This document shows, one piece after another, positions 6,952 to 39,838 of a DNA stretch of 39,838 nt. The notes below the pieces were generated by a model. It worked only from the letters and a program-made list of their open reading frames with translations. It was not told the origin of the DNA and searched no databases. Each line of letters begins with the position of its first letter. The first letter of the stretch is position 1. Source of the stretch: an uncultured Candidatus Peribacteria bacterium (GTDB lineage: Bacteria > Patescibacteriota > Gracilibacteria > UBA1369 > LOWO2-01-FULL-3). The stretch lies in assembly GCA_964629065.1 (NCBI GenBank), contig CAZVOZ010000001.1:26472-66309 (forward strand), written 5' to 3'. Made by a program: the position numbers and the translations under genes.

Positions 6952-9501
6952 TTACATCTCTTCAGCAACTTCAACACCAAGTAGGGAAAGTCCGGTTTTT
7001 AAAATTTGGCTGGTGGCTTCGACGAGTTTGAGGCGGGCGTGTTTTTCCTTTTGGTCTGCGATTTTCAGGATTGGAACGACGGCATATAGGGTATTGAATT
7101 TTTGGGCTAGTTCGTAAATGTAATTGCTGAGGAGGTTTGGTTTGTATTCTTCGGCGGCGATGATGAGTTGTTCTTTGAATTTCGTGAGGTGGCGTTCTAG
7201 GTCTTCATAGACAGCGGTGGCTTTAGGATCGAGTTCGGCGGTTTGGTCGCCGGCGGCTTCTTGTTTGCGCAAGATGCTTTTGGCGCGGGCGTAAGTGTAT
7301 TGGAGGTAAGGCGCGCTATTGCCTTCGAGCGAGAGGATTTTGTCCCATTCGAAAGTGACATTGGTGGTGCGATTTTGGGAAAGGATGGCGTATTTGACTG
7401 CGCCAACGCCGATGATGTGGGCGAGTTTTGTAGTGTCTTGAAGGTCGGGATTTTTTTCGGTGATCAGTTTGGCGGCGCGTTCCTCGGCTTCGGTGAGAAC
7501 TTCGTCGAGAAGGACCGCCGTTCCGCTACGCGTGCTCATTTTGCCTTCTGGAAGGCTCATGCGGCCGAATTTGACATGAACGGGTTGGTCTTGGCAGAGG
7601 TTCATTTTTCGGGCGGCGGTGAAGAGTTGTTCGAAGTGAAGGCTTTGGGCGACATCGACAAAATAGAGGATTTTGGCGGGTTGGTGATTTTTAATTCGAT
7701 AATCGATCGTGGCTAAATCGCGGGTAATATAAAGTGTTGTGCCGTCTTTTTTACGCACAGGAACTGTTGCGAGGCCCTCTTCTGCGAATTCCAAGACGAG
7801 CGCGCCTTCTTCACCTTCGGTGATAACACCTTTTTTGAGTCCGAGGTCGATGATTGCGGTCATTTTGTCTTCGTAGAAGCTTTCTCCGAGGATTTGGTCG
7901 AAATGAATGCCGCCGAGGTGATCGTAGGTTTTTTGTAATGATTTGAGGCTTTCGTCGACAAACCACTGCCAAAGCGCGCGATTTTCGCTATCTCCTTCTT
8001 CAAATTTGCGAAATTCAGCACGGCCTTCATCGGCGAGGGTAGGATTTTTCTCTTCTTCGTCGTGAAATTGGATATAAAGTTTCAAAAGTTCATTTACAGG
8101 ATCTTTTTCAATGGTGTTTTTATCGCCCCATTTTTTATAAGCGGCAATTAGTCGTCCAAATTGAGTCCCCCAATCGCCAATATGGTTAATGCTAATAACT
8201 TTAAAACCGAGGAGTTTGTAAAGGTTATAGATGCTTTGGCCAATCACCGTAGAAAGCAAGTGATGTACGCCGAGGGGTTTGGCGATATTTGGTGAGCTAT
8301 ATTCAAGGATGATCGTTTTATCGCTATTGTGTTGTTGGCCGTATTGATCTTTTTGCTGCAGGATTTCGTCGATTTCCGCTTGGAGGGTTTCTTTGGAGAG
8401 AAAGATGTTGATAAAGCCAGGTCCGGCGATTTCAGTTTTGGCGATTTCGGCTGAAGGTTCGAGCTTTTCGAGAATCATGGCGGCAATTTCTTGCGGTGGA
8501 ATGTTCAGGTTTTTACTGAGTTGGAGGGCGATTGAGCAAGCATAATCGCCGTGAGTACTTTCGCGAGGGTATTCGAGGTGGAGATGGATTTCGTGATCGG
8601 GGAAAGCGGCTTTAGCGGCCTTTTGAAGGATTGATTCCAATCTATGTTTGAGTAAATCGGCAGTGATAATTGAAGTGTCAGCAACTGGTTTTGGCTTAGG
8701 TTTAGTTTTTTGCTTTTCGGCAATGGCTTGCTGGACGATAAAGTGCGCTTTATCTTTATTGAGAACTTTGGAATCGTCGGCTTCGCTCAGGCCTTTTATG
8801 CCGAGGTCGATGGCAGAAGTTTCTTCGGTGATGATGTATGGTTCGATTTGGCCGCCGATGTATTTGATTGCGGCGTTTTGGAATTCTTTAATGATCGCAC
8901 CAAATTCGTCGAGATGGATTTTGCTCAAGTCTTCGATCAGAATGAGGGCGTTTTTGGTTTCGCTTGTGAATTTGCTGCGATCGCATTCACGGTGATTCCA
9001 ATAGCGGCAAGTAATACCGGCTTGATCGATATAAGCGATTTCGCCTTCTTTGGCTTGTTTCACTTCGATTTCGCCGATGGCGCGGAAGGGTTCGCCGCCT
9101 TTAGTGTAAGTTAATTCAAGGTCGCCATGGATTTTGTCGAGGTCTTCGCCGCCGACGGGAAGCAAGTGTTGAAGCGAGAAATGGTTATAAAGATCGACCA
9201 ATAAATTGATGTGAGAGATTTCTTTACCAGCTTTGATGCGAGTAAGTAGAGCGGCGATTGCAGGTGGATATTTGTTTGGATTAACGCCGAATTTAGCATA
9301 GGCATCGGCCCAAGGTCGAACGGTGGGCAAATTGAGAATATCAGTGTCGGCAAACTCTTTCGCTCGGCGAGCGCAAATACCGCGTAAAAGGCTATCGACT
9401 GTGGAGAGTCGACGTTTGTTATCGATGCCTTTTAGAAGGATAACGCCGATTTTGAGATCGGGGTTTTGTTGAAAAATTTTTGGATCAACGCGTAATTTCA
9501 T
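6952..9501 (-). CDS. argS: Arginine--tRNA ligase with an N-terminal B3/B4 (PheRS-beta-like, COG3382-type) domain fusion
   Basis: 849 aa. Residues from about 285 to 849 are a full ArgRS: Add-1 N-domain, class I signature PLGVHHLLSTVIG, HIGDWGTQFG, GKMSTRSG, and a DALR-type C-terminus (APYLQYTYARAKSIL). Residues from about 1 to 235 match standalone B3/B4-domain proteins (LVDLYNHFSLQHLLPVGGEDLDKIHGDLEL, RYWNHRECDRSKFTSETKNALILIE). A K/P-rich linker (KQKTKPKPKP) joins the two parts. Confidence 0.9.
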   Translation of the reverse strand: MKLRVDPKIFQQNPDLKIGVILLKGIDNKRRLSTVDSLLRGICARRAKEFADTDILNLPTVRPWADAYAKFGVNPNKYPPAIAALLTRIKAGKEISHINLLVDLYNHFSLQHLLPVGGEDLDKIHGDLELTYTKGGEPFRAIGEIEVKQAKEGEIAYIDQAGITCRYWNHRECDRSKFTSETKNALILIEDLSKIHLDEFGAIIKEFQNAAIKYIGGQIEPYIITEETSAIDLGIKGLSEADDSKVLNKDKAHFIVQQAIAEKQKTKPKPKPVADTSIITADLLKHRLESILQKAAKAAFPDHEIHLHLEYPRESTHGDYACSIALQLSKNLNIPPQEIAAMILEKLEPSAEIAKTEIAGPGFINIFLSKETLQAEIDEILQQKDQYGQQHNSDKTIILEYSSPNIAKPLGVHHLLSTVIGQSIYNLYKLLGFKVISINHIGDWGTQFGRLIAAYKKWGDKNTIEKDPVNELLKLYIQFHDEEEKNPTLADEGRAEFRKFEEGDSENRALWQWFVDESLKSLQKTYDHLGGIHFDQILGESFYEDKMTAIIDLGLKKGVITEGEEGALVLEFAEEGLATVPVRKKDGTTLYITRDLATIDYRIKNHQPAKILYFVDVAQSLHFEQLFTAARKMNLCQDQPVHVKFGRMSLPEGKMSTRSGTAVLLDEVLTEAEERAAKLITEKNPDLQDTTKLAHIIGVGAVKYAILSQNRTTNVTFEWDKILSLEGNSAPYLQYTYARAKSILRKQEAAGDQTAELDPKATAVYEDLERHLTKFKEQLIIAAEEYKPNLLSNYIYELAQKFNTLYAVVPILKIADQKEKHARLKLVEATSQILKTGLSLLGVEVAEEM

Positions 9502-17717: not shown

Positions 17718-18122
17718 ATGGTGCACGATAAAATTGCGGTTCTTTTGAAAGATTTGGCGACTTTAAGAGATAAGTTAAAGGAAGTTAAAAAAGACATGAA
17801 GTCGGAAGAGAAGATTGAAACGGAAGATTATTTGTCTTTGAAAAAATCTTTGGCAGATCTGAAAAAACAGGTGAAGGATTTTGAAGATGACTATAATGAA
17901 AGTTTGAAGAAGGATAGTTTTTACAATCAGTTGCGGGAAATGAAGTTAAAAGCGGAGGAAGAAATCGCTTTGGCAAATGAAAAATTATTTGCTTTGGTTG
18001 AAGAGTTGCCACAGAAATTTTTTGAAATGGATGTGGATTTGGAAGCGGGAAGAGTGAAGGTGCAAATTCAGCCGGAGATGAGGGTTTATCTAAATGGCAA
18101 AGAAGAAAAGAAAAGAACTTAA
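17718..18122 (+). CDS. Hypothetical coiled-coil protein (K/E-rich)
   Basis: 134-aa ORF with heptad-like charged composition. No recognisable domain. Confidence 0.45.
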   Translation: MVHDKIAVLLKDLATLRDKLKEVKKDMKSEEKIETEDYLSLKKSLADLKKQVKDFEDDYNESLKKDSFYNQLREMKLKAEEEIALANEKLFALVEELPQKFFEMDVDLEAGRVKVQIQPEMRVYLNGKEEKKRT

Positions 18123-18242
18123 AAAAGGCTGAAAAAGCGATCTGCGGCGTCAAGATCGTCGCTCCCTCCTCATCGTATAAAACGATACGTCTCGTCGGTC
18201 GCTCCTTCTTTCCTTGCATCTCATTATTTTCAGCTTTTTTTT
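18121..18242. repeat. 122-bp palindrome-ended element, copy A (MITE/RPE-like)
   Basis: Arms are aaaaaaggctgaaaa ... ttttcagcttttttt (one mismatch or offset). The core aligns with copies B and C. Central CGTAT-aaaacg-ATACG hairpin at 18174-18189. The element exactly fills the gap between the stop at 18120-22 (+ gene) and the stop at 18241-43 (comM). Confidence 0.8.
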
Positions 18243-19734
18243 AGGTGAGCTTGGGGCGGCGGAATTGGATTGCTTCCATGATGTGATGGGTTTGGATTTT
18301 TTCCATCGCGTCGATGTCGGCGATGGTGCGGGCGATTTTGAGAATTTTGAGGTAAGCGCGATTGGAAAGGTTGAATTTTTCGACGGCTTGAAAGAGGAGT
18401 TTTTGTGATTCGAGTGAGATCTCGCAGTACATTTTGAGGTCTTCGATGTCGAGTTGATGGTTGAGTTTTCCTCTTTGGAGTTGAATAGTCCGAGCGCGTT
18501 CAATGTTTTCGAAGATGCGTTGGGTGGCGGCATGGTCAGGTTTTGTGAGTTTCTGGATTGGGCTGCGGGTGATGTGAACGAAAAGGTCGAAGCGATCGAT
18601 TAGAGGTCCGGAAAGCTTTTTCTGATATTGAGCAATTTGATGAGGCGTGCAGATACAGCGGATTTTACTGTCGGCAAGATTGCCGCAAGGACAGGGGTTC
18701 ATAGTGGCTAAAAGAGTAAAATCGCAGGGGAAAGTCGTGGTGGTTTGGTTGCGGCTGATTTTTACTTCACGATCTTCGAGTGGTTGGCGGAGGCCTTCAA
18801 GAGTTTTGTGGTTGAATTCAGCGATTTCGTCAAGGAAGAGAATTCCATTGTGGGCGAGGGAAATTTCACCGGGGCGAGGCGGCACTCCCCCACCGATCAA
18901 AGTGGAAAATGATGTGCCGTGGTGAACTTCGCGGAAGGGGCGGGATTTGATGAATTGATTCAAACCTCCAAGCAAACCGGCGATGGAAAATATTTTGGTG
19001 GTTTGGAGCATTTCTGTTTTCGTGAGAGTAGGTAAAAGTGAGCGAAAACTGCGGCAAAGGACGGTTTTGCCGCAACCGGGACTGCCGTAAAGTAAGGCGT
19101 GATGCGAGCCGGCGAGGGCGATTTCCAGAGCACGCTTCCCCTTTTCTAACCCGATTACTTGAGAAAAAGTAATCGGGCGCTGACGCAAGTTGATTCCGAC
19201 TCTTTTAGTGGGCTCGATAAGCTTTCGTCCGCTGATGTGGTCCAATAACGCTTTTAGATTGGAAACAGGAAGAACCTTTATTTCACTAAATAAGCTGGCC
19301 TCCTGAGCGTTGTCCACTGGCAAGAAAATTTGCTTGAAACCTGCTTTTTCAGCGGCTTCGGCGAATAAAATAGCCCCTCTAACTGGTTTTACTTCGCCGT
19401 TCAATGCTAATTCACCTACTAAAATCGAGCATTCAACATCATTGAATCGCACTTGACCACTAGCAATCAACAAACTCATAGCAATCGGTAGATCAAATAG
19501 CGTACCGTGCTTGCGCAGTTGTGCCGGTGCGAGATTGATAGTTTTACGGATAGGTAAGAATTTCATGCCGGAGTTTTTAATGCTTGAGCGAATGCGCTCT
19601 TTTGACTCCTGAACGGAGGTATCGCCTAACCCCACGATATTAAATGCCGGCATACCTTGACTGATGTCCGCTTCAACTTCAATGATTTGGCTATCGAGCC
19701 CACTAAAGGAGCAGGAAAAAACTTTTGCTGTCAT
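18241..19734 (-). CDS. comM: YifB/ComM family Mg-chelatase-like AAA+ ATPase
   Basis: 497 aa with the N-terminal Lon-protease-like ChlI domain, Walker A LLYGSPGCGKT, GILFLDEIAEF and the C-terminal Mg_chelatase_C block. Confidence 0.9.
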   Translation of the reverse strand: MTAKVFSCSFSGLDSQIIEVEADISQGMPAFNIVGLGDTSVQESKERIRSSIKNSGMKFLPIRKTINLAPAQLRKHGTLFDLPIAMSLLIASGQVRFNDVECSILVGELALNGEVKPVRGAILFAEAAEKAGFKQIFLPVDNAQEASLFSEIKVLPVSNLKALLDHISGRKLIEPTKRVGINLRQRPITFSQVIGLEKGKRALEIALAGSHHALLYGSPGCGKTVLCRSFRSLLPTLTKTEMLQTTKIFSIAGLLGGLNQFIKSRPFREVHHGTSFSTLIGGGVPPRPGEISLAHNGILFLDEIAEFNHKTLEGLRQPLEDREVKISRNQTTTTFPCDFTLLATMNPCPCGNLADSKIRCICTPHQIAQYQKKLSGPLIDRFDLFVHITRSPIQKLTKPDHAATQRIFENIERARTIQLQRGKLNHQLDIEDLKMYCEISLESQKLLFQAVEKFNLSNRAYLKILKIARTIADIDAMEKIQTHHIMEAIQFRRPKLT

Positions 19735-24141: not shown

Positions 24142-25941
24142 ATGGATAAGATTGCAATTTTGGATTTTGGAGGACAATACGCTCATCTGATTGCCAATAG
24201 GATTCGTCGATTGGGTGTTTATAGTGAGATTTTTGATGGCGAAACTCCAGCGAAAGACTTATTAGGCTATAAAGGTTTTATTTTGTCGGGTGGGCCGGCG
24301 AGCGTGAATGCTGTAGGGAGTGCAACTTGTGATCTAGGAATTTTCGAAATGGGTGTACCGATTTTGGCGATTTGTTATGGGCATCAATTGGTGGGCAAGG
24401 TGCTTGGAGGTGAAGTTGAAAAAGGAAAAGTGCGAGAATATGGCAAGGCTCAATTGAGATTATCTAGTAAGCCAGGGATTTTGGGAGATTTAGAAATGGA
24501 AGAAACGGTTTGGATGAGCCATTTTGACCAAGTGGTGAAGGCGCCGGAAGGGTTCAAGGTAGTAGGTTCGACTGAGGACTGTCCAATTGCGGCAATGGTG
24601 AATGAGGAAAAGGAAATTTACTGCGTTCAATTCCATCCAGAAGTAACGCATACGCCATGCGGAATGAAAATTTTGACGGATTTTGTGGCGCTGACGGGAG
24701 CAAAACGCGATTGGGATTTGGATCTTTATATCGAGCGAATTGTGGCGGAGATTCAAGAAAAGGTTGGTGAGCGAAAAGTGTTTTTAATGATTAGTGGTGG
24801 CGTGGATAGTACGGTGGCGTTTTTGCTGCTAAAGAAAGCTTTGGGTAACGATCGTGTTTATGGGCTTTTGGTCGATACCGGTTTGATGCGGATGAATGAA
24901 GCAGCGGAAGTTACGGAGGCGTTGAAACGAGTTGGCGTAGATAATTTGCATGTTTATGATGCCGAGAAGGAGTACTTGGAAGCTTTGCGTGAGGTTTATG
25001 AGCCGGAAGCGAAAAGACAGATTATTGGTGATTTGTTTTTGGATATTAAGGATAGAGTTTGCGCGGATTTGGGATTGGACTCCGAAGAATGGATTTTGGG
25101 GCAAGGCACGATTTATCCAGATACGATTGAGACGGGCGAGAGTAAGCACGCTGACAAGATTAAAACGCATCACAACCGCGTAGATAAGATTCAGGAGCTT
25201 TGTCGTCAAGGAAAGGTGATTGAACCTTTAAATCAATTGTATAAGGATGAAGTGAGGGCGGTGGGTGAGAAGTTGGGCTTAGAAAAGAAGATGGTAGAAA
25301 GACATCCATTTCCGGGTCCAGGTTTGGGTGTGAGAATTCTGTGTAGTAAAGGTGAAGATTATCCGAGTAATTTGGAAGAGGTTGAAAAAAATGCCGGAGT
25401 TTTGGCAGGAGAACTGGGTCTTGAAGTGAAGGTTTTACCTATAAAAAGTGTGGGAGTTCAGGGGGATGAACGCACATACCGACACCCGGCTGTGGTCTAT
25501 GGAAAGACAAAAGATTGGGATGGCCTAGACAGGTTGTCTACCCGTTTGACTAATCAAGTCCCGGAAGTGAATAGGGTGCTTTTGAGCTTATACCCTAATG
25601 ATTTAAAGGTTTTGAGTAGTCGAAATTGTTGGATTGATAAGGCGCGAGTTTTGACTACCCAACATGCCGATAAGATAGTTATGGACTTTGTTTGCGAGCA
25701 CGGTCTTGACAAAAACATTTGGCAGTTTCCGACGGTATTAATTCCAGTTGGTGTGGATGGTGGGGAAGAGGCAATTGTACTGCGGCCGGTGGAGAGCTTA
25801 GAAGCAATGACAGCAAATTTTTATCGCATGGATTTTGATTTGTTGGAGCAGTTGGTAGAGAAGCTAAAAATGGTACCAAATGTTTCGGCGGTGTTTTATG
25901 ATATTACGAATAAGCCGCCGGGGACTATTGAGTGGGAGTAA
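24142..25941 (+). CDS. guaA: GMP synthase (glutamine-hydrolysing), long form
   Basis: 599 aa with a GATase domain (ILDFGGQYAHLIANRIR, CYGHQ), the ATP-PPase P-loop SGGVDSTV, and a C-terminal dimerisation domain that is longer than the typical bacterial form. Confidence 0.93.
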   Translation: MDKIAILDFGGQYAHLIANRIRRLGVYSEIFDGETPAKDLLGYKGFILSGGPASVNAVGSATCDLGIFEMGVPILAICYGHQLVGKVLGGEVEKGKVREYGKAQLRLSSKPGILGDLEMEETVWMSHFDQVVKAPEGFKVVGSTEDCPIAAMVNEEKEIYCVQFHPEVTHTPCGMKILTDFVALTGAKRDWDLDLYIERIVAEIQEKVGERKVFLMISGGVDSTVAFLLLKKALGNDRVYGLLVDTGLMRMNEAAEVTEALKRVGVDNLHVYDAEKEYLEALREVYEPEAKRQIIGDLFLDIKDRVCADLGLDSEEWILGQGTIYPDTIETGESKHADKIKTHHNRVDKIQELCRQGKVIEPLNQLYKDEVRAVGEKLGLEKKMVERHPFPGPGLGVRILCSKGEDYPSNLEEVEKNAGVLAGELGLEVKVLPIKSVGVQGDERTYRHPAVVYGKTKDWDGLDRLSTRLTNQVPEVNRVLLSLYPNDLKVLSSRNCWIDKARVLTTQHADKIVMDFVCEHGLDKNIWQFPTVLIPVGVDGGEEAIVLRPVESLEAMTANFYRMDFDLLEQLVEKLKMVPNVSAVFYDITNKPPGTIEWE

Positions 25942-26063
25942 GGGAATGCCGAAAAAGGCGATCTGCGGCGTCAACTTCGTCGCTCCTTCCTCACCGTATT
26001 AGCACATACGCCTCCTTCAGTCGCTCCTTGTTTCCTTGCAGCTCATCCTTTTTCGGCATTCCC
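25942..26063. repeat. 122-bp palindrome-ended element, copy B (MITE/RPE-like)
   Basis: Perfect 17-bp arms: gggaatgccgaaaaagg (25942-58) and cctttttcggcattccc (26047-63). Central CGTAT-tagcac-ATACG at 25995-26010. Starts 1 nt after the guaA stop and contains the murI stop codon. Confidence 0.85.
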
Positions 26064-26882
26064 AGCCCGAAGGGAGACTTTTGCGGGCATGGCGATTTTG
26101 AGGGCAAAATTTTTCTGGATGTAGGATTGAAAAGTAGCGGGGTCTTCGGTGGTTAGGAATTTGCGCGTGCCGCCGGTGGTGAGTTTTTCCGCGATTTCTG
26201 GATGACGAAGGAGGTACGATTCAAGACTTTCGGCAGCGGATTGGCCGGATTCAATAATTTGGACGCGCTTGCCGATGATTCTTTGAAATTGCTTACGCAT
26301 GATGGGGTAATGTGTACAACCGAGAATTAATGTGTCAATATTGGCATTTTTCAATGAGCGGAGGTATTTTTTGAGGATTGAGGTTGCTTCGGGCTTGGTA
26401 TGCCAACCTTCTTCAATAAAAGGTACAAGCAGTGGGCAAGCCTTCGAAGTGATATGAATGTCGGGGTTAATTTTGGCGATTTCTTGATTGTAGACGCCGG
26501 AATTGACGGTCGCTTTAGTGCCAACAAGACCGATGCGACCGGTTTTGGTGATGGCGGCAGCTTTTTCGACGGTGGGAATTAAAACACCGAGAATTTTGCG
26601 ATTCTTTTCGTCTGCGCCATTGAGGTATTTTTTTTGAAGACTGCTAAGTGCATTGGCTGAAGCGGTATTGCAAGCGATGATGACAAGTTTCACACCACGA
26701 TCGAAAAGGTGGTTGACGGCTTGTTCGGTGAATTGGAGGATGGTTTCGGCGCTGTGGTTTCCATAAGGCGCGCGGGCATTATCGCCAAAATAAATATAAT
26801 CATATTGGGGAAATCGTTCTAAAAACGGCTTTAGAACTGTGATGCCACCATAACCTGAATCAAAAAGTCCAATCATATGCAA
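26043..26882 (-). CDS. murI: Glutamate racemase
   Basis: 279 aa with GLFDSGYGGITV, IIACNTASA and LGCTHYP. The last 6 codons (GNAEKG) and the TGA stop lie inside repeat copy B. Confidence 0.9.
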   Translation of the reverse strand: MHMIGLFDSGYGGITVLKPFLERFPQYDYIYFGDNARAPYGNHSAETILQFTEQAVNHLFDRGVKLVIIACNTASANALSSLQKKYLNGADEKNRKILGVLIPTVEKAAAITKTGRIGLVGTKATVNSGVYNQEIAKINPDIHITSKACPLLVPFIEEGWHTKPEATSILKKYLRSLKNANIDTLILGCTHYPIMRKQFQRIIGKRVQIIESGQSAAESLESYLLRHPEIAEKLTTGGTRKFLTTEDPATFQSYIQKNFALKIAMPAKVSLRAGNAEKG

Positions 26883-38766: not shown

Positions 38767-39153
38767 TTAGACTTCGACTCCGGTACCGGCACCGAGAACG
38801 GCTTGAACGATAACGAAGGATAGTAATACGATAATCAAACCAACGACGGCGTAAGTAATGATTTTTTTGGCATTACCCATAGCATCTTCATTACCGGCTG
38901 ATCCTGTAAGTTGGACACCACCGTAGATGATCATAATGACGGCGAGGATTCCGAGGAAACCGAGGCCATAGTTCACAATACGCAAGATAAGAGCCCGAAG
39001 CGATCCTTCACCACCGGTTGCGGCGGAGACGGACTCAGGAACATCACCAGGATTGAGAATTGAGCTGGCTTCGACGAGGCCATGGCCAGAGAAGAGAACG
39101 AGAGCAACTGACATGAGGCCAAAGCTCAAAGCAAAGTTTTTAAGTGCTTTCAT
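38767..39153 (-). CDS. Small secreted/membrane protein resembling TrbC/VirB2-type (T4SS pilin-like) proteins
   Basis: 128 aa starting at the ATG at 39153: signal peptide MKALKNFALSFGLMSVALVLFSG, then two hydrophobic helices separated by a short loop (GGVQLTGSAGNEDAMGNAKK). The longer track ORF (to 39666) is antisense to murB and was rejected. Confidence 0.55.
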   Translation of the reverse strand: MKALKNFALSFGLMSVALVLFSGHGLVEASSILNPGDVPESVSAATGGEGSLRALILRIVNYGLGFLGILAVIMIIYGGVQLTGSAGNEDAMGNAKKIITYAVVGLIIVLLSFVIVQAVLGAGTGVEV

Positions 39154-39224: not shown

Positions 39225-39838
39225 TTAGAGTGGGTGTTCGGGGATGATCTGAACTTCGGGGGTAAGGTCGATTTGGAATTTTTCGTGGACGGTTTTTTGG
39301 GCGTGGTGCATGAGGTCGAGGATTTCGTTTGCGGTGGCGCGGCCTTTGTTGATAAAGAAGTTGGCGTGTTTTTCGGAGATTTGGGCGTCGCCGATTTTGA
39401 AGCCTTTGAGGCCGGCTTGGTCGAGGAGGATGCCGGCGGGTTTTTCGGGGAAGGGGTTTTTGAAGAAGGAGCCGGTGGTGAGAACGCCGAAGGGTTGTTT
39501 TTGGAAGCGGTCTTGGCGAAGAGAGGTGATTCGAGTAGCTTGGGCTTCTTTGTCTTGGCAAGTTGTGATGCGGAATTTGGCGGAGAGGACGATTTTGTTT
39601 GTGCCTTTGAGGTTGCTGTGGCGGTAGTGGAGGTCGAGGTCTTGAGGGGACATTTGAAAAACGCACCCTACTGTGTCAACTGCGTCACCTCTTCCTCGTC
39701 GTATAAGGCCATACGCCTCCGTCAGAGGTTCCTCGTTTCCTTGTATGGGATCGTTTTTCAAATGTCCCTGGTTGTTAGCAGTAGGATCGAAGATTTCGGC
39801 GCTGATGAGGCAGTCTTTGGTTTCGAGGCCGCTGCAGC
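39225..39838 (-). CDS. murB: UDP-N-acetylenolpyruvoylglucosamine reductase, 5'-partial, carrying a 36-codon in-frame repeat-element insertion
   Basis: C-terminal MurB blocks: LHYRHSNLKG...ILSAKFRI, GSFFKNP, AGILLDQAGLKGFKIGDAQISEKHANFFIN. By hand translation the frame stays open from 39836 through the element (…AEIFDPTANNQGH-[LKNDPIQGNEEPLTEAYGLIRRGRGDAVDTVGCVFQ]-MSPQDLDLHYRHS…). Confidence 0.85.
   Translation of the reverse strand, partial: CSGLETKDCLISAEIFDPTANNQGHLKNDPIQGNEEPLTEAYGLIRRGRGDAVDTVGCVFQMSPQDLDLHYRHSNLKGTNKIVLSAKFRITTCQDKEAQATRITSLRQDRFQKQPFGVLTTGSFFKNPFPEKPAGILLDQAGLKGFKIGDAQISEKHANFFINKGRATANEILDLMHHAQKTVHEKFQIDLTPEVQIIPEHPL
39647..39768. repeat. 122-bp palindrome-ended element, copy C (inside murB)
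   Basis: Perfect 17-bp arms: gggacatttgaaaaacg (39647-63) and cgtttttcaaatgtccc (39752-68). Central CGTAT-aaggcc-ATACG at 39700-15. The core aligns with copies A and B. Confidence 0.85.

Follow-up and report, generated by a model that had tools for sequence, protein, structure and literature searches.

How an essential gene can contain an entire copy of a palindromic repeat and still be read through without interruption is the question raised by murB, the gene for UDP-N-acetylenolpyruvoylglucosamine reductase, at the end of a 39,838-nucleotide stretch of DNA from an uncultured, ultra-small Candidatus Peribacteria bacterium (GenBank assembly GCA_964629065.1, contig CAZVOZ010000001.1, positions 26,472 to 66,309; this whole stretch is called the window below). 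A sequence-only reading had proposed that the repeat adds 36 residues to MurB in the manner described for Rickettsia palindromic elements (RPEs). The results described below confirm the in-frame insertion of a mobile repeat in murB, and the following features define the locus.

39225..39838, minus strand, continuing past the window end: murB (UDP-N-acetylenolpyruvoylglucosamine reductase), C-terminal 203 codons.
39647..39768, plus strand: copy C, a complete 122-bp palindromic element in murB, matched by covariance model R1 (96.7 bits, E = 1e-24) and alignable with copies A, B, and D of the same repeat.
39654..39761, minus strand, murB frame: net 36-codon stop-free insertion LKNDPIQGNEEPLTEAYGLIRRGRGDAVDTVGCVFQ, corresponding to MurB residues 154–189.

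The insert amounts to 108 nt, that is, 36 codons with no stop in the murB frame, lying between the flanking codons CAT (His, plus-strand 39762–39764) and ATG (Met, 39651–39653), exactly where it had been placed from the sequence; the peptides encoded within it include NDPIQGNEEPLTEAYGLIR and GDAVDTVGCVFQMSPQDLDLHYR. It occupies the D-P-x-T-G-x turn of a β-hairpin and ends 9 residues before the invariant Y199-R200-x-S202, in agreement with its predicted position just upstream of the YR(x)S motif. A homologue search over 5.8 billion proteins returned the full-length MurB (331 residues, complete on an overlapping contig) together with 2340 homologues. In an alignment of 110 sequences the 36 insert columns are empty in all 109 homologues, as they also are in a 15-sequence alignment, and the spacing between E133 and Y199 is 29–30 residues in every one of the 109, against 66 in the window MurB. 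Once the 36 residues are taken out, the orthologue length is matched exactly, which bears out the proposal, made from the spacing of canonical MurB, that they represent extra material. The insert is absent even from the nearest orthologue (P0002, from the Gracilibacteria-class genome GCA_017999295.1), which is 92.5% identical in DNA and shares the gene order, and from murB of the next relative, at 78% DNA identity.

The extra material is, as had been supposed, a copy of a repeat that is also found between genes, since its sequence can be aligned to those of copies A, B, and D. The parts of copy C and of the adjoining host sequence are listed below.

39647..39663, plus strand: left terminal inverted repeat GGGACATTTGAAAAACG, a perfect complement of 39752–39768, homologous to the ends of copies B and D.
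39672..39677, plus strand: left internal-loop motif GTGTCA (family consensus GYGTCA), outside the search pattern used for the family.
39700..39715, plus strand: apical hairpin CGTAT-N6-ATACG, within the conserved core of the family, co-varying in other copies.
39738..39744, plus strand: right internal-loop motif TTCCTTG, within the search pattern, with variants in other copies.
39752..39768, plus strand: right terminal inverted repeat CGTTTTTCAAATGTCCC.
39769..39795, minus strand: rewritten host codons upstream of copy C (DPTANNQ versus HPENAKI in the nearest orthologue), marked by a drop in DNA identity.
39632..39646, minus strand: rewritten host codons downstream of copy C (PQD versus PET in the nearest orthologue).

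Copy C has the same length as copy B (122 bp); its C/T-rich "+" orientation is that of the plus strand of the window and hence antisense to murB. Its terminal inverted repeats are perfectly complementary over 17 bp, for which the chance expectation is 0.31 matches even when 3 mismatches are allowed, and the folding z-scores of the element are −6.6 and −8.0, the latter for the murB sense strand, in which the hairpin reaches −55 kcal/mol. For the outer seven bases, homologous sequence is present at the ends of copy B (GGGAATGCCGAAAAAGG), of copy D (GGGAGATGCTGAGAAAGG), and of the copies in related genomes ((TA)GGAACTTCTGAAAA...). Because the outer arms are thus homologous between copies (GGGA.ATGC...), GGGACAT and ATGTCCC are parts of the element and not of the host; the 14-bp palindrome formed by joining them, which the sequence-only reading had regarded as what the host gene would retain, consists instead of the tips of the element's own 17-bp inverted repeats. 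For the same reason, the idea that each copy landed in a pre-existing palindrome was rejected. The net gain of 108 nt accordingly stands, but the unit is the 122-bp element (39647–39768) and not the 108-nt segment, and the difference means that ~14 nt of murB were lost or overwritten. Such a loss fits the local divergence of the element flanks: in 30-nt windows, DNA identity to the orthologue falls to 52–59% on either side of the element (~27 nt upstream, 15 nt downstream) and is 85–100% elsewhere in the gene, and the 16 codons around the insert hold about half of the nonsynonymous differences from the nearest orthologue (22.7 of 44.2). The alignments of the flanks to the orthologue are ambiguous as to the position of the ~14 lost nucleotides.

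These junctions also bear on the possibility that a repeat copy was misjoined into murB during assembly. The genome contains several similar copies and comes from metagenome assembly, and a second record with the same murB insertion (L001; GCA_013558295.1, JACCDN010407099.1), which shares 4067 nt with the window end at 0 mismatches, may go back to the same reads. Both flanks are nevertheless murB, joined in frame; a repeat-borne chimera would join two loci and not embed one whole unique copy; and copy C is only ~69–74% identical to copies A and B, with host flanks that have specifically diverged. We therefore regard an assembly artefact as highly improbable.

The gene bearing the insert has the marks of a working one. 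Outside the rewritten loop, the ratio of nonsynonymous to synonymous substitution rates (dN/dS) relative to the nearest orthologue is 0.20, so that murB is under purifying selection there; the invariant MurB residues are all present, and the reading frame is intact across 331 codons. The AlphaFold model of the protein, with a mean predicted local distance difference test score (pLDDT) of 91 and a predicted template modeling score (pTM) of 0.87, keeps the MurB fold, its best structural match being MurB of S. aureus (1HSK; TM-score 0.89, normalized to the target). The insert is the sole poorly predicted part (pLDDT 45–51) and appears as a low-confidence excursion at the turn of the β-hairpin, between strands 138–145 and 186–190. 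The model thus supports the view of MurB as an enzyme with a floppy extra loop at the hairpin tip, and the insert would be exposed at the protein surface. It might be argued that this murB is inactive or dispensable, being a recent pseudogene or one of two murB genes, so that the open frame reflects luck and not tolerance: ~30% of the family copies are stop-free in the murB frame by chance, and the amino-acid changes outside the loop number 6 in the window lineage against 2 in the sister lineage. The low dN/dS, the retained invariant residues, and the unbroken frame speak against this explanation, as do the gene order, which is that of relatives with a single murB at this position, and the like pattern in aroA and tsaD of other genomes described below; we judge it to be unlikely.

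Most copies of the family are intergenic, and besides murB two clear cases within genes were found. In a Peregrinibacteria genome (L053; JACPLZ010000005.1, 3756–3887), a copy lies in aroA, the gene for EPSP synthase, in frame and stop-free, adding ~44 residues; residues 355–399 of this enzyme have no counterpart in the solved enzyme 5XWB. In a Saccharibacteria genome (L057; JBAXUT010000001.1, 2163–2294), a copy lies in tsaD, likewise in frame and stop-free, adding ~42 residues, and TsaD residues 222–266 stand opposite 3 residues of the solved protein. The aroA copy is read in the same element frame as that in murB, as is evident from the shared pattern I-Q-G-N...E-x-Y-x-L-I-R-R (..MQGS....EPYLLIRRA.. 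versus ..IQGN....EAYGLIRRG..), and the tsaD copy is read in a different one. All three clear genic copies have an added length that is a multiple of 3 nt and no stop codon, and the copies inside genes share one orientation relative to the gene. Across the family, the murB frame is free of stops in only 24 of 79 copies, and in any given frame the number is 8–39 of 79 (10–49%); copies B and D have TGA exactly where copy C has CGA. With so few copies stop-free per frame, the family is not built to be coding, and selection would keep only the compatible copies inside genes.

On the basis of these observations, it is likely, with a probability of roughly 0.7, that copy C is a mobile repeat of the non-autonomous kind and that MurB tolerates it as a translated loop at its surface, in the way of RPEs. 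In the predicted course of events, the 122-bp element, an extended, imperfect hairpin bounded by terminal inverted repeats of 17 bp, would have landed in the codons of the β-hairpin turn, with a net gain of exactly 108 nt and the loss or rewriting of ~14 nt of host sequence. The gene reads the purine-rich strand of the element, in a frame without stops, and the copy would be transcribed and translated with the gene, adding a hydrophilic and probably disordered loop of 36 residues that the enzyme would tolerate, with no removal at the RNA or protein level. The murB insert is therefore probably translated and tolerated, and survival within genes would be limited to copies that satisfy the demands of frame and stop codons, as with those in aroA and tsaD elsewhere.

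A different course would be the removal of the element before or during translation, as a tiny intron-like sequence or by ribosomal bypass of the kind known from phage T4 gene 60 and mitochondrial "byp", yielding a MurB without the 36 residues. The very stable hairpin in the murB sense strand, the maintenance of its structure by compensatory changes across phyla, and the single orientation of every genic copy relative to its gene count in favor of such a process. On the other hand, removal would render unnecessary the multiple-of-3, stop-free state of all three clear genic copies; precise excision of 122 bp would shift the frame, 122 not being a multiple of 3; and no match to an Rfam family, ribozyme, or intron was obtained, even at E values up to 1–10. 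A length of 108–122 nt is, moreover, to our knowledge far below the size of any self-splicing intron. Taken together, removal appears very unlikely.

Several points weigh against the interpretation of copy C as a translated mobile insert. Translation of the murB insert is a step that we infer, a second intact murB may be present elsewhere in the genome, and the very stable mRNA hairpin (−55 kcal/mol) could hinder translation or attract RNase III. The screen for genic copies relied on open frames spanning the element and was thus blind to copies that split a gene. As to mobility, copy C ends in CA...CT without TA, the orthologous murB sites contain no TA at all, and the rewriting of the flanks goes beyond what a simple insertion explains. 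No second pair of matching ends 0.6–2.5 kb apart was found in any locus, and no transposase domain in Pfam scans of 30 window proteins. The 148 element-neighboring proteins matched 133 families, and the 25 commonest of these include no transposase. A TA on the upstream side of copy C would create an in-frame TAG; considering this together with the lack of TA in both the copy and the orthologous site, the insertion into murB probably involved extra repair or rewriting.

Further insertion sites are provided by the other copies in this genome, of which four (A–D) are found within ~45 kb, all in one orientation; two of them lie between genes of the window.

18122..18241, plus strand: copy A, filling the entire spacer of two convergent genes, with flanking TAs (18120–18121 and 18242–18243) in both stop codons.
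25942..26063, plus strand: copy B, 122 bp, beginning directly after the TAA stop of guaA.

Each of the two convergent genes has its stop codon completed by one of the TAs that flank copy A; without the element, the genes would overlap in TTAG. The last codons and the TGA stop (26043–26045) of a convergent gene of the Asp/Glu racemase family (26043–26882, minus strand) are within copy B, so that the C-terminus of that protein is element-encoded. Copy D is situated just past the window end (L001 4358–4480), 360 nt upstream of murB. Its empty site in the orthologous locus (L002) reads AAAATC-TA-AAAGG, with a single TA, and the filled site reads AAAATC-TA-GAGACATGTCAC-TA-(GGGAG...CTCCC)-TA-AAAGG, with TA on both sides of the element. 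The additional 12-nt near-palindrome GAGACATGTCAC (L001 4344–4355), located between two TAs and absent from the L002 site, resembles the two ends of a copy-C-like element after collapse (compare GGGACAT...ATGTCCC) and could be the scar of a deletion in which the hairpin was lost; a search across the window for further short palindromic scars found none. The syntenic 20 kb and 14 kb of the two relatives contain no repeat copy, and metagenomes scanned for a pattern peculiar to copies A, B, and D yielded the L001 contig only, with no further copies from this organism.

Beyond this organism, 185,579 species-representative genomes were scanned with the core pattern CGTAT-N6-ATACGNCTC-N14-19-TTCCTTG, which gave 68 loci against an estimated ~6 expected by chance; 5 loci are chance matches, and most of the others contain the full-length element. 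A covariance model built from 60 copies and applied to the loci collected by the scan gave 84 matches (83 without the copy duplicated in the window and L001) in 65 loci of 38 genomes, including copies that do not fit the core pattern and up to 5 copies within 8 kb. The hosts comprise Peregrinibacteria/Peribacteria, Saccharibacteria, and other Patescibacteria, Omnitrophota, Nitrospirota, Verrucomicrobiales, Trichlorobacter, Gemmatimonadota, Myxococcales, and others. In one Moraniibacteria contig (L017; JAGQLW010000028.1, 2471–7568), five copies are found within 5 kb, all in one orientation. The copies are 118–135 bp long, with some longer variants of ~190 bp, have no long open frame inside, and mostly possess terminal inverted repeats of 15–25 bp. 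What is conserved across phyla is the inner core and not the ends: GYGTCA is nearly invariant, though outside the search pattern, and the inner loops in which it stands opposite TTCCTTG are conserved without being mutually complementary. Among the 52 copies whose ends are clear, about 17 terminate in TA, CTAG, or another repeat containing TA, and the ends of the remaining copies are degenerate; TA, being its own reverse complement, could also represent the last pair of bases at the outside of the inverted repeat.

Compensatory changes have preserved the hairpin. In the family alignment, 88% of the cells are paired, against 62% in shuffles, and the covariation score is 0.588, against 0.147 after shuffling and at most 0.16 with slid partners, double changes occurring in 17 of 21 pairs. 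The apical stem co-varies also in copies found by the model alone (CGTAC/GTACG, TGTAT/ATACA, and CGTAG/CTACG). The counts of G-T and A-C pairs (83 versus 63) are mixed as to which strand is functional. A search of the whole window against Rfam at gathering thresholds detected only three tRNAs, and copies B and C gave noise only at E values up to 10 and 1, respectively. There was no match to the core pattern in the viral contigs searched and none to copy B in a plasmid collection examined by sensitive blastn, and we found no literature linking miniature inverted repeats to these phyla or dealing with orientation-biased transposable elements of the miniature inverted-repeat kind (MITEs). The family is thus large and apparently not previously described.

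The placement of the copies follows both genes and GC skew. With crude gene calls, the intergenic copies are distributed as 32 tandem sense, 17 convergent, 7 tandem antisense, and 1 divergent; they sit downstream of genes, and of the 57 copies that have called genes on both sides only 1 lies between divergent genes. Counted by copies, 67 of 83 have the C/T-rich strand of the element on the G-rich strand; counted by loci, 52 of 65 do so (p = 1e-6), and counted by genomes, 32 of 38 (p = 2e-5), the p values ranging from 1e-8 to 2e-5. Where genes point against the element, the skew in the element's orientation is still positive in 40 of 55 cases, and of the 7 copies for which flanking genes and skew are in conflict, 6 are oriented with the skew, indicating that the polarity is not mere co-orientation with genes. 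In the window itself, the plus-strand GC skew is uniformly positive (0.11–0.55 in 2-kb bins), whichever strand the genes are on; a skew of this size is extreme, far above that of most bacteria. The skew polarity accounts for the genic copies being antisense to their host genes; as murB is opposite the G-rich strand, its mRNA carries the purine-rich element strand, which, as read by murB, encodes hydrophilic residues. The purine-rich strand folds more stably in 66–70 of 79 copies.

How the element moves may be considered from these features. The TA on both sides and the symmetric CTAG/TTAA-like sites point to a transposase of the IS630/Tc1-mariner type acting in trans, which would recognize the ends and either duplicate TA or cut next to TA. 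The co-variation in the hairpin, the asymmetry of the conserved loops, and the skew polarity point in another direction, to a single-stranded stage like that of REPIN/RAYT or IS200/IS605 elements, or could result from selective loss of one orientation. The family would then consist of hairpins mobilized or maintained via single-stranded DNA tied to replication, and not of double-strand cut-and-paste MITEs, which would be compatible with translation of the insert. Consistent with such a stage are the compensatory changes, the asymmetry of the conserved internal loops, the orientation that tracks GC skew even against the direction of neighboring genes, the better folding of one strand, and the REP-like placement downstream of genes. 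Against it stand the symmetric TA signature, the failure to find a Y1/HUH transposase in the window or among the most frequent neighboring protein families, and the lack of a conserved GTAG motif, and the bias may alternatively reflect faster loss of copies with the more stable strand on the lagging-strand template. We consider single-strand mobilization a real possibility, albeit with less than even chances. A broader proposal, which we put forward tentatively and hold to be somewhat unlikely, is that the family represents a hitherto undescribed kind of mobile hairpin shared across phyla, in which the folded single strand (DNA or RNA), and not the ends alone, is selected and insertion or survival is coupled to the direction of replication, and that it shapes the small genomes of Patescibacteria and Omnitrophota by providing 3′ ends of genes, keeping stop codons intact, and giving new loops to essential enzymes such as MurB, AroA, and TsaD. 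No gene enrichment near the elements was seen among the 148 neighboring proteins. Directly downstream of murB (38767–39150, minus strand) is a gene for a pilin-like membrane protein, assigned to Pfam T4SS_pilin on the overlapping contig; T4SS_pilin is also the most frequent neighbor family of the elements in other loci (4 of 148 proteins).

The element is worth comparing with known small repeats. RPEs are short palindromic multicopy repeats that occur in frame in conserved housekeeping genes of small, reduced genomes and add a tolerated peptide (PMC10969869). The likeness to them suggested by the sequence-only reading holds for the way of working, and the comparison covers mechanism and not family membership: in both cases, palindromic multicopy repeats of ~100–150 bp are found in frame in housekeeping genes of small, reduced genomes, and the RPE trait of in-frame insertion into conserved protein genes is present in murB, aroA, and tsaD. 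RPE-containing genes have been shown to be transcribed. In contrast to RPEs, the present family has hosts in Patescibacteria and many other phyla and not in Rickettsia; its copies are mostly intergenic and, with 10–49% stop-free per frame, not specially adapted to coding; and it possesses TA-flanked inverted repeats and a GC-skew orientation. Intragenic ERIC sequences and other in-frame MITE fusions likewise represent small mobile repeats with open frames that occasionally lie in frame within genes (PMC10969869), but they belong to another sequence family and other hosts, whereas the genes concerned here, murB, aroA, and tsaD, are essential and single-copy.

Typical MITE traits are also seen, namely a size of <300 bp without room for a transposase, terminal inverted repeats, and many dispersed copies. 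The TA-duplicating MITEs of the IS630/Tc1-mariner type used for comparison include Correia/NEMIS of Neisseria (PMC10969869). These and the eukaryotic Stowaway elements share with the present family a length of 100–160 bp, terminal inverted repeats, TA at both ends (here in many of the copies) with a single TA at an empty site (here in the one site compared), the absence of an encoded transposase, a high copy number, and the capacity for a hairpin in transcripts. They differ in that no parent insertion sequence or transposase was found for the present family in the loci examined, and in that its inner core is conserved across phyla with co-varying helices and a strong GC-skew orientation bias. 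Part of the core may resemble the Correia interior (ACAAGG..GCGAC..GAAG). With REP/REPIN-RAYT and IS200/IS605 elements, the family has in common hairpins downstream of genes or between convergent genes, a conservation of structure and not only of sequence, and an orientation bias such as would be expected, relative to replication, for single-strand mobilization. Unlike a REPIN, the element is not composed of a pair of inverted REP units; TA flanks it on either side, and its core is shared across phyla, REPINs being lineage-specific; GTAG/CTAC is not conserved in the family alignment, and no RAYT/Y1 transposase was found in the window or in the most frequent neighboring families. The R″/R′ boxes of integron attC sites (RYYYAAC ... 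GTTRRRY) are not conserved in the family alignment as judged by eye, and the copies are dispersed among housekeeping genes. The likenesses of the element are thus to the way of working of RPEs, the borders of Correia elements, and the placement and structural conservation of REP/REPIN elements. Its presence in frame within a gene adds one more case to a phenomenon already known, and we have not found described the combination of a cross-phylum core, compensatory changes, and skew orientation.

With three essential enzymes affected in three genomes, the translation of selfish DNA within essential genes, for which Rickettsia has so far been the best-known case, would be extended to the candidate phyla radiation, and annotators may note that odd protein insertions in such organisms can be mobile repeats. 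It is unusual for miniature transposons that a core is shared from Saccharibacteria to Nitrospirota and Trichlorobacter, with co-varying helices and skew orientation in 32 of 38 genomes. These features make testable the identity of the mobilizer, the single-stranded stage, the spread between phyla that share groundwater or sediment, and a role of the hairpin at the 3′ ends of genes.

Finally, some other features of the window deserve mention. Genes in the window and in L002 are read through with the standard bacterial code; from the long open frames and the lack of an in-frame TGA in murB, this lineage seemingly does without the UGA = Gly code of some Gracilibacteria, the class under which NCBI labels its relatives. 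GMP synthase, encoded by guaA (24142–25941), has a 96-residue insertion (window 25486–25773) between the GD.RTY motif and the C-terminal dimerization segment in comparison with 5TW7, the solved GMP synthase that matches it best; an origin of this insertion from the element was rejected, as it does not match the repeat model and has the look of a folded domain. In an open frame at 182–517, two nearly identical 34-nt segments 96 nt apart (206–335) suggest a tandem repeat in a small protein. The arginyl-tRNA synthetase (6952–9501, minus strand) comprises 849 residues and has at its N-terminus a B3/4 domain, which is known from the β subunit of phenylalanyl-tRNA synthetase; it looks like an unusual fusion.

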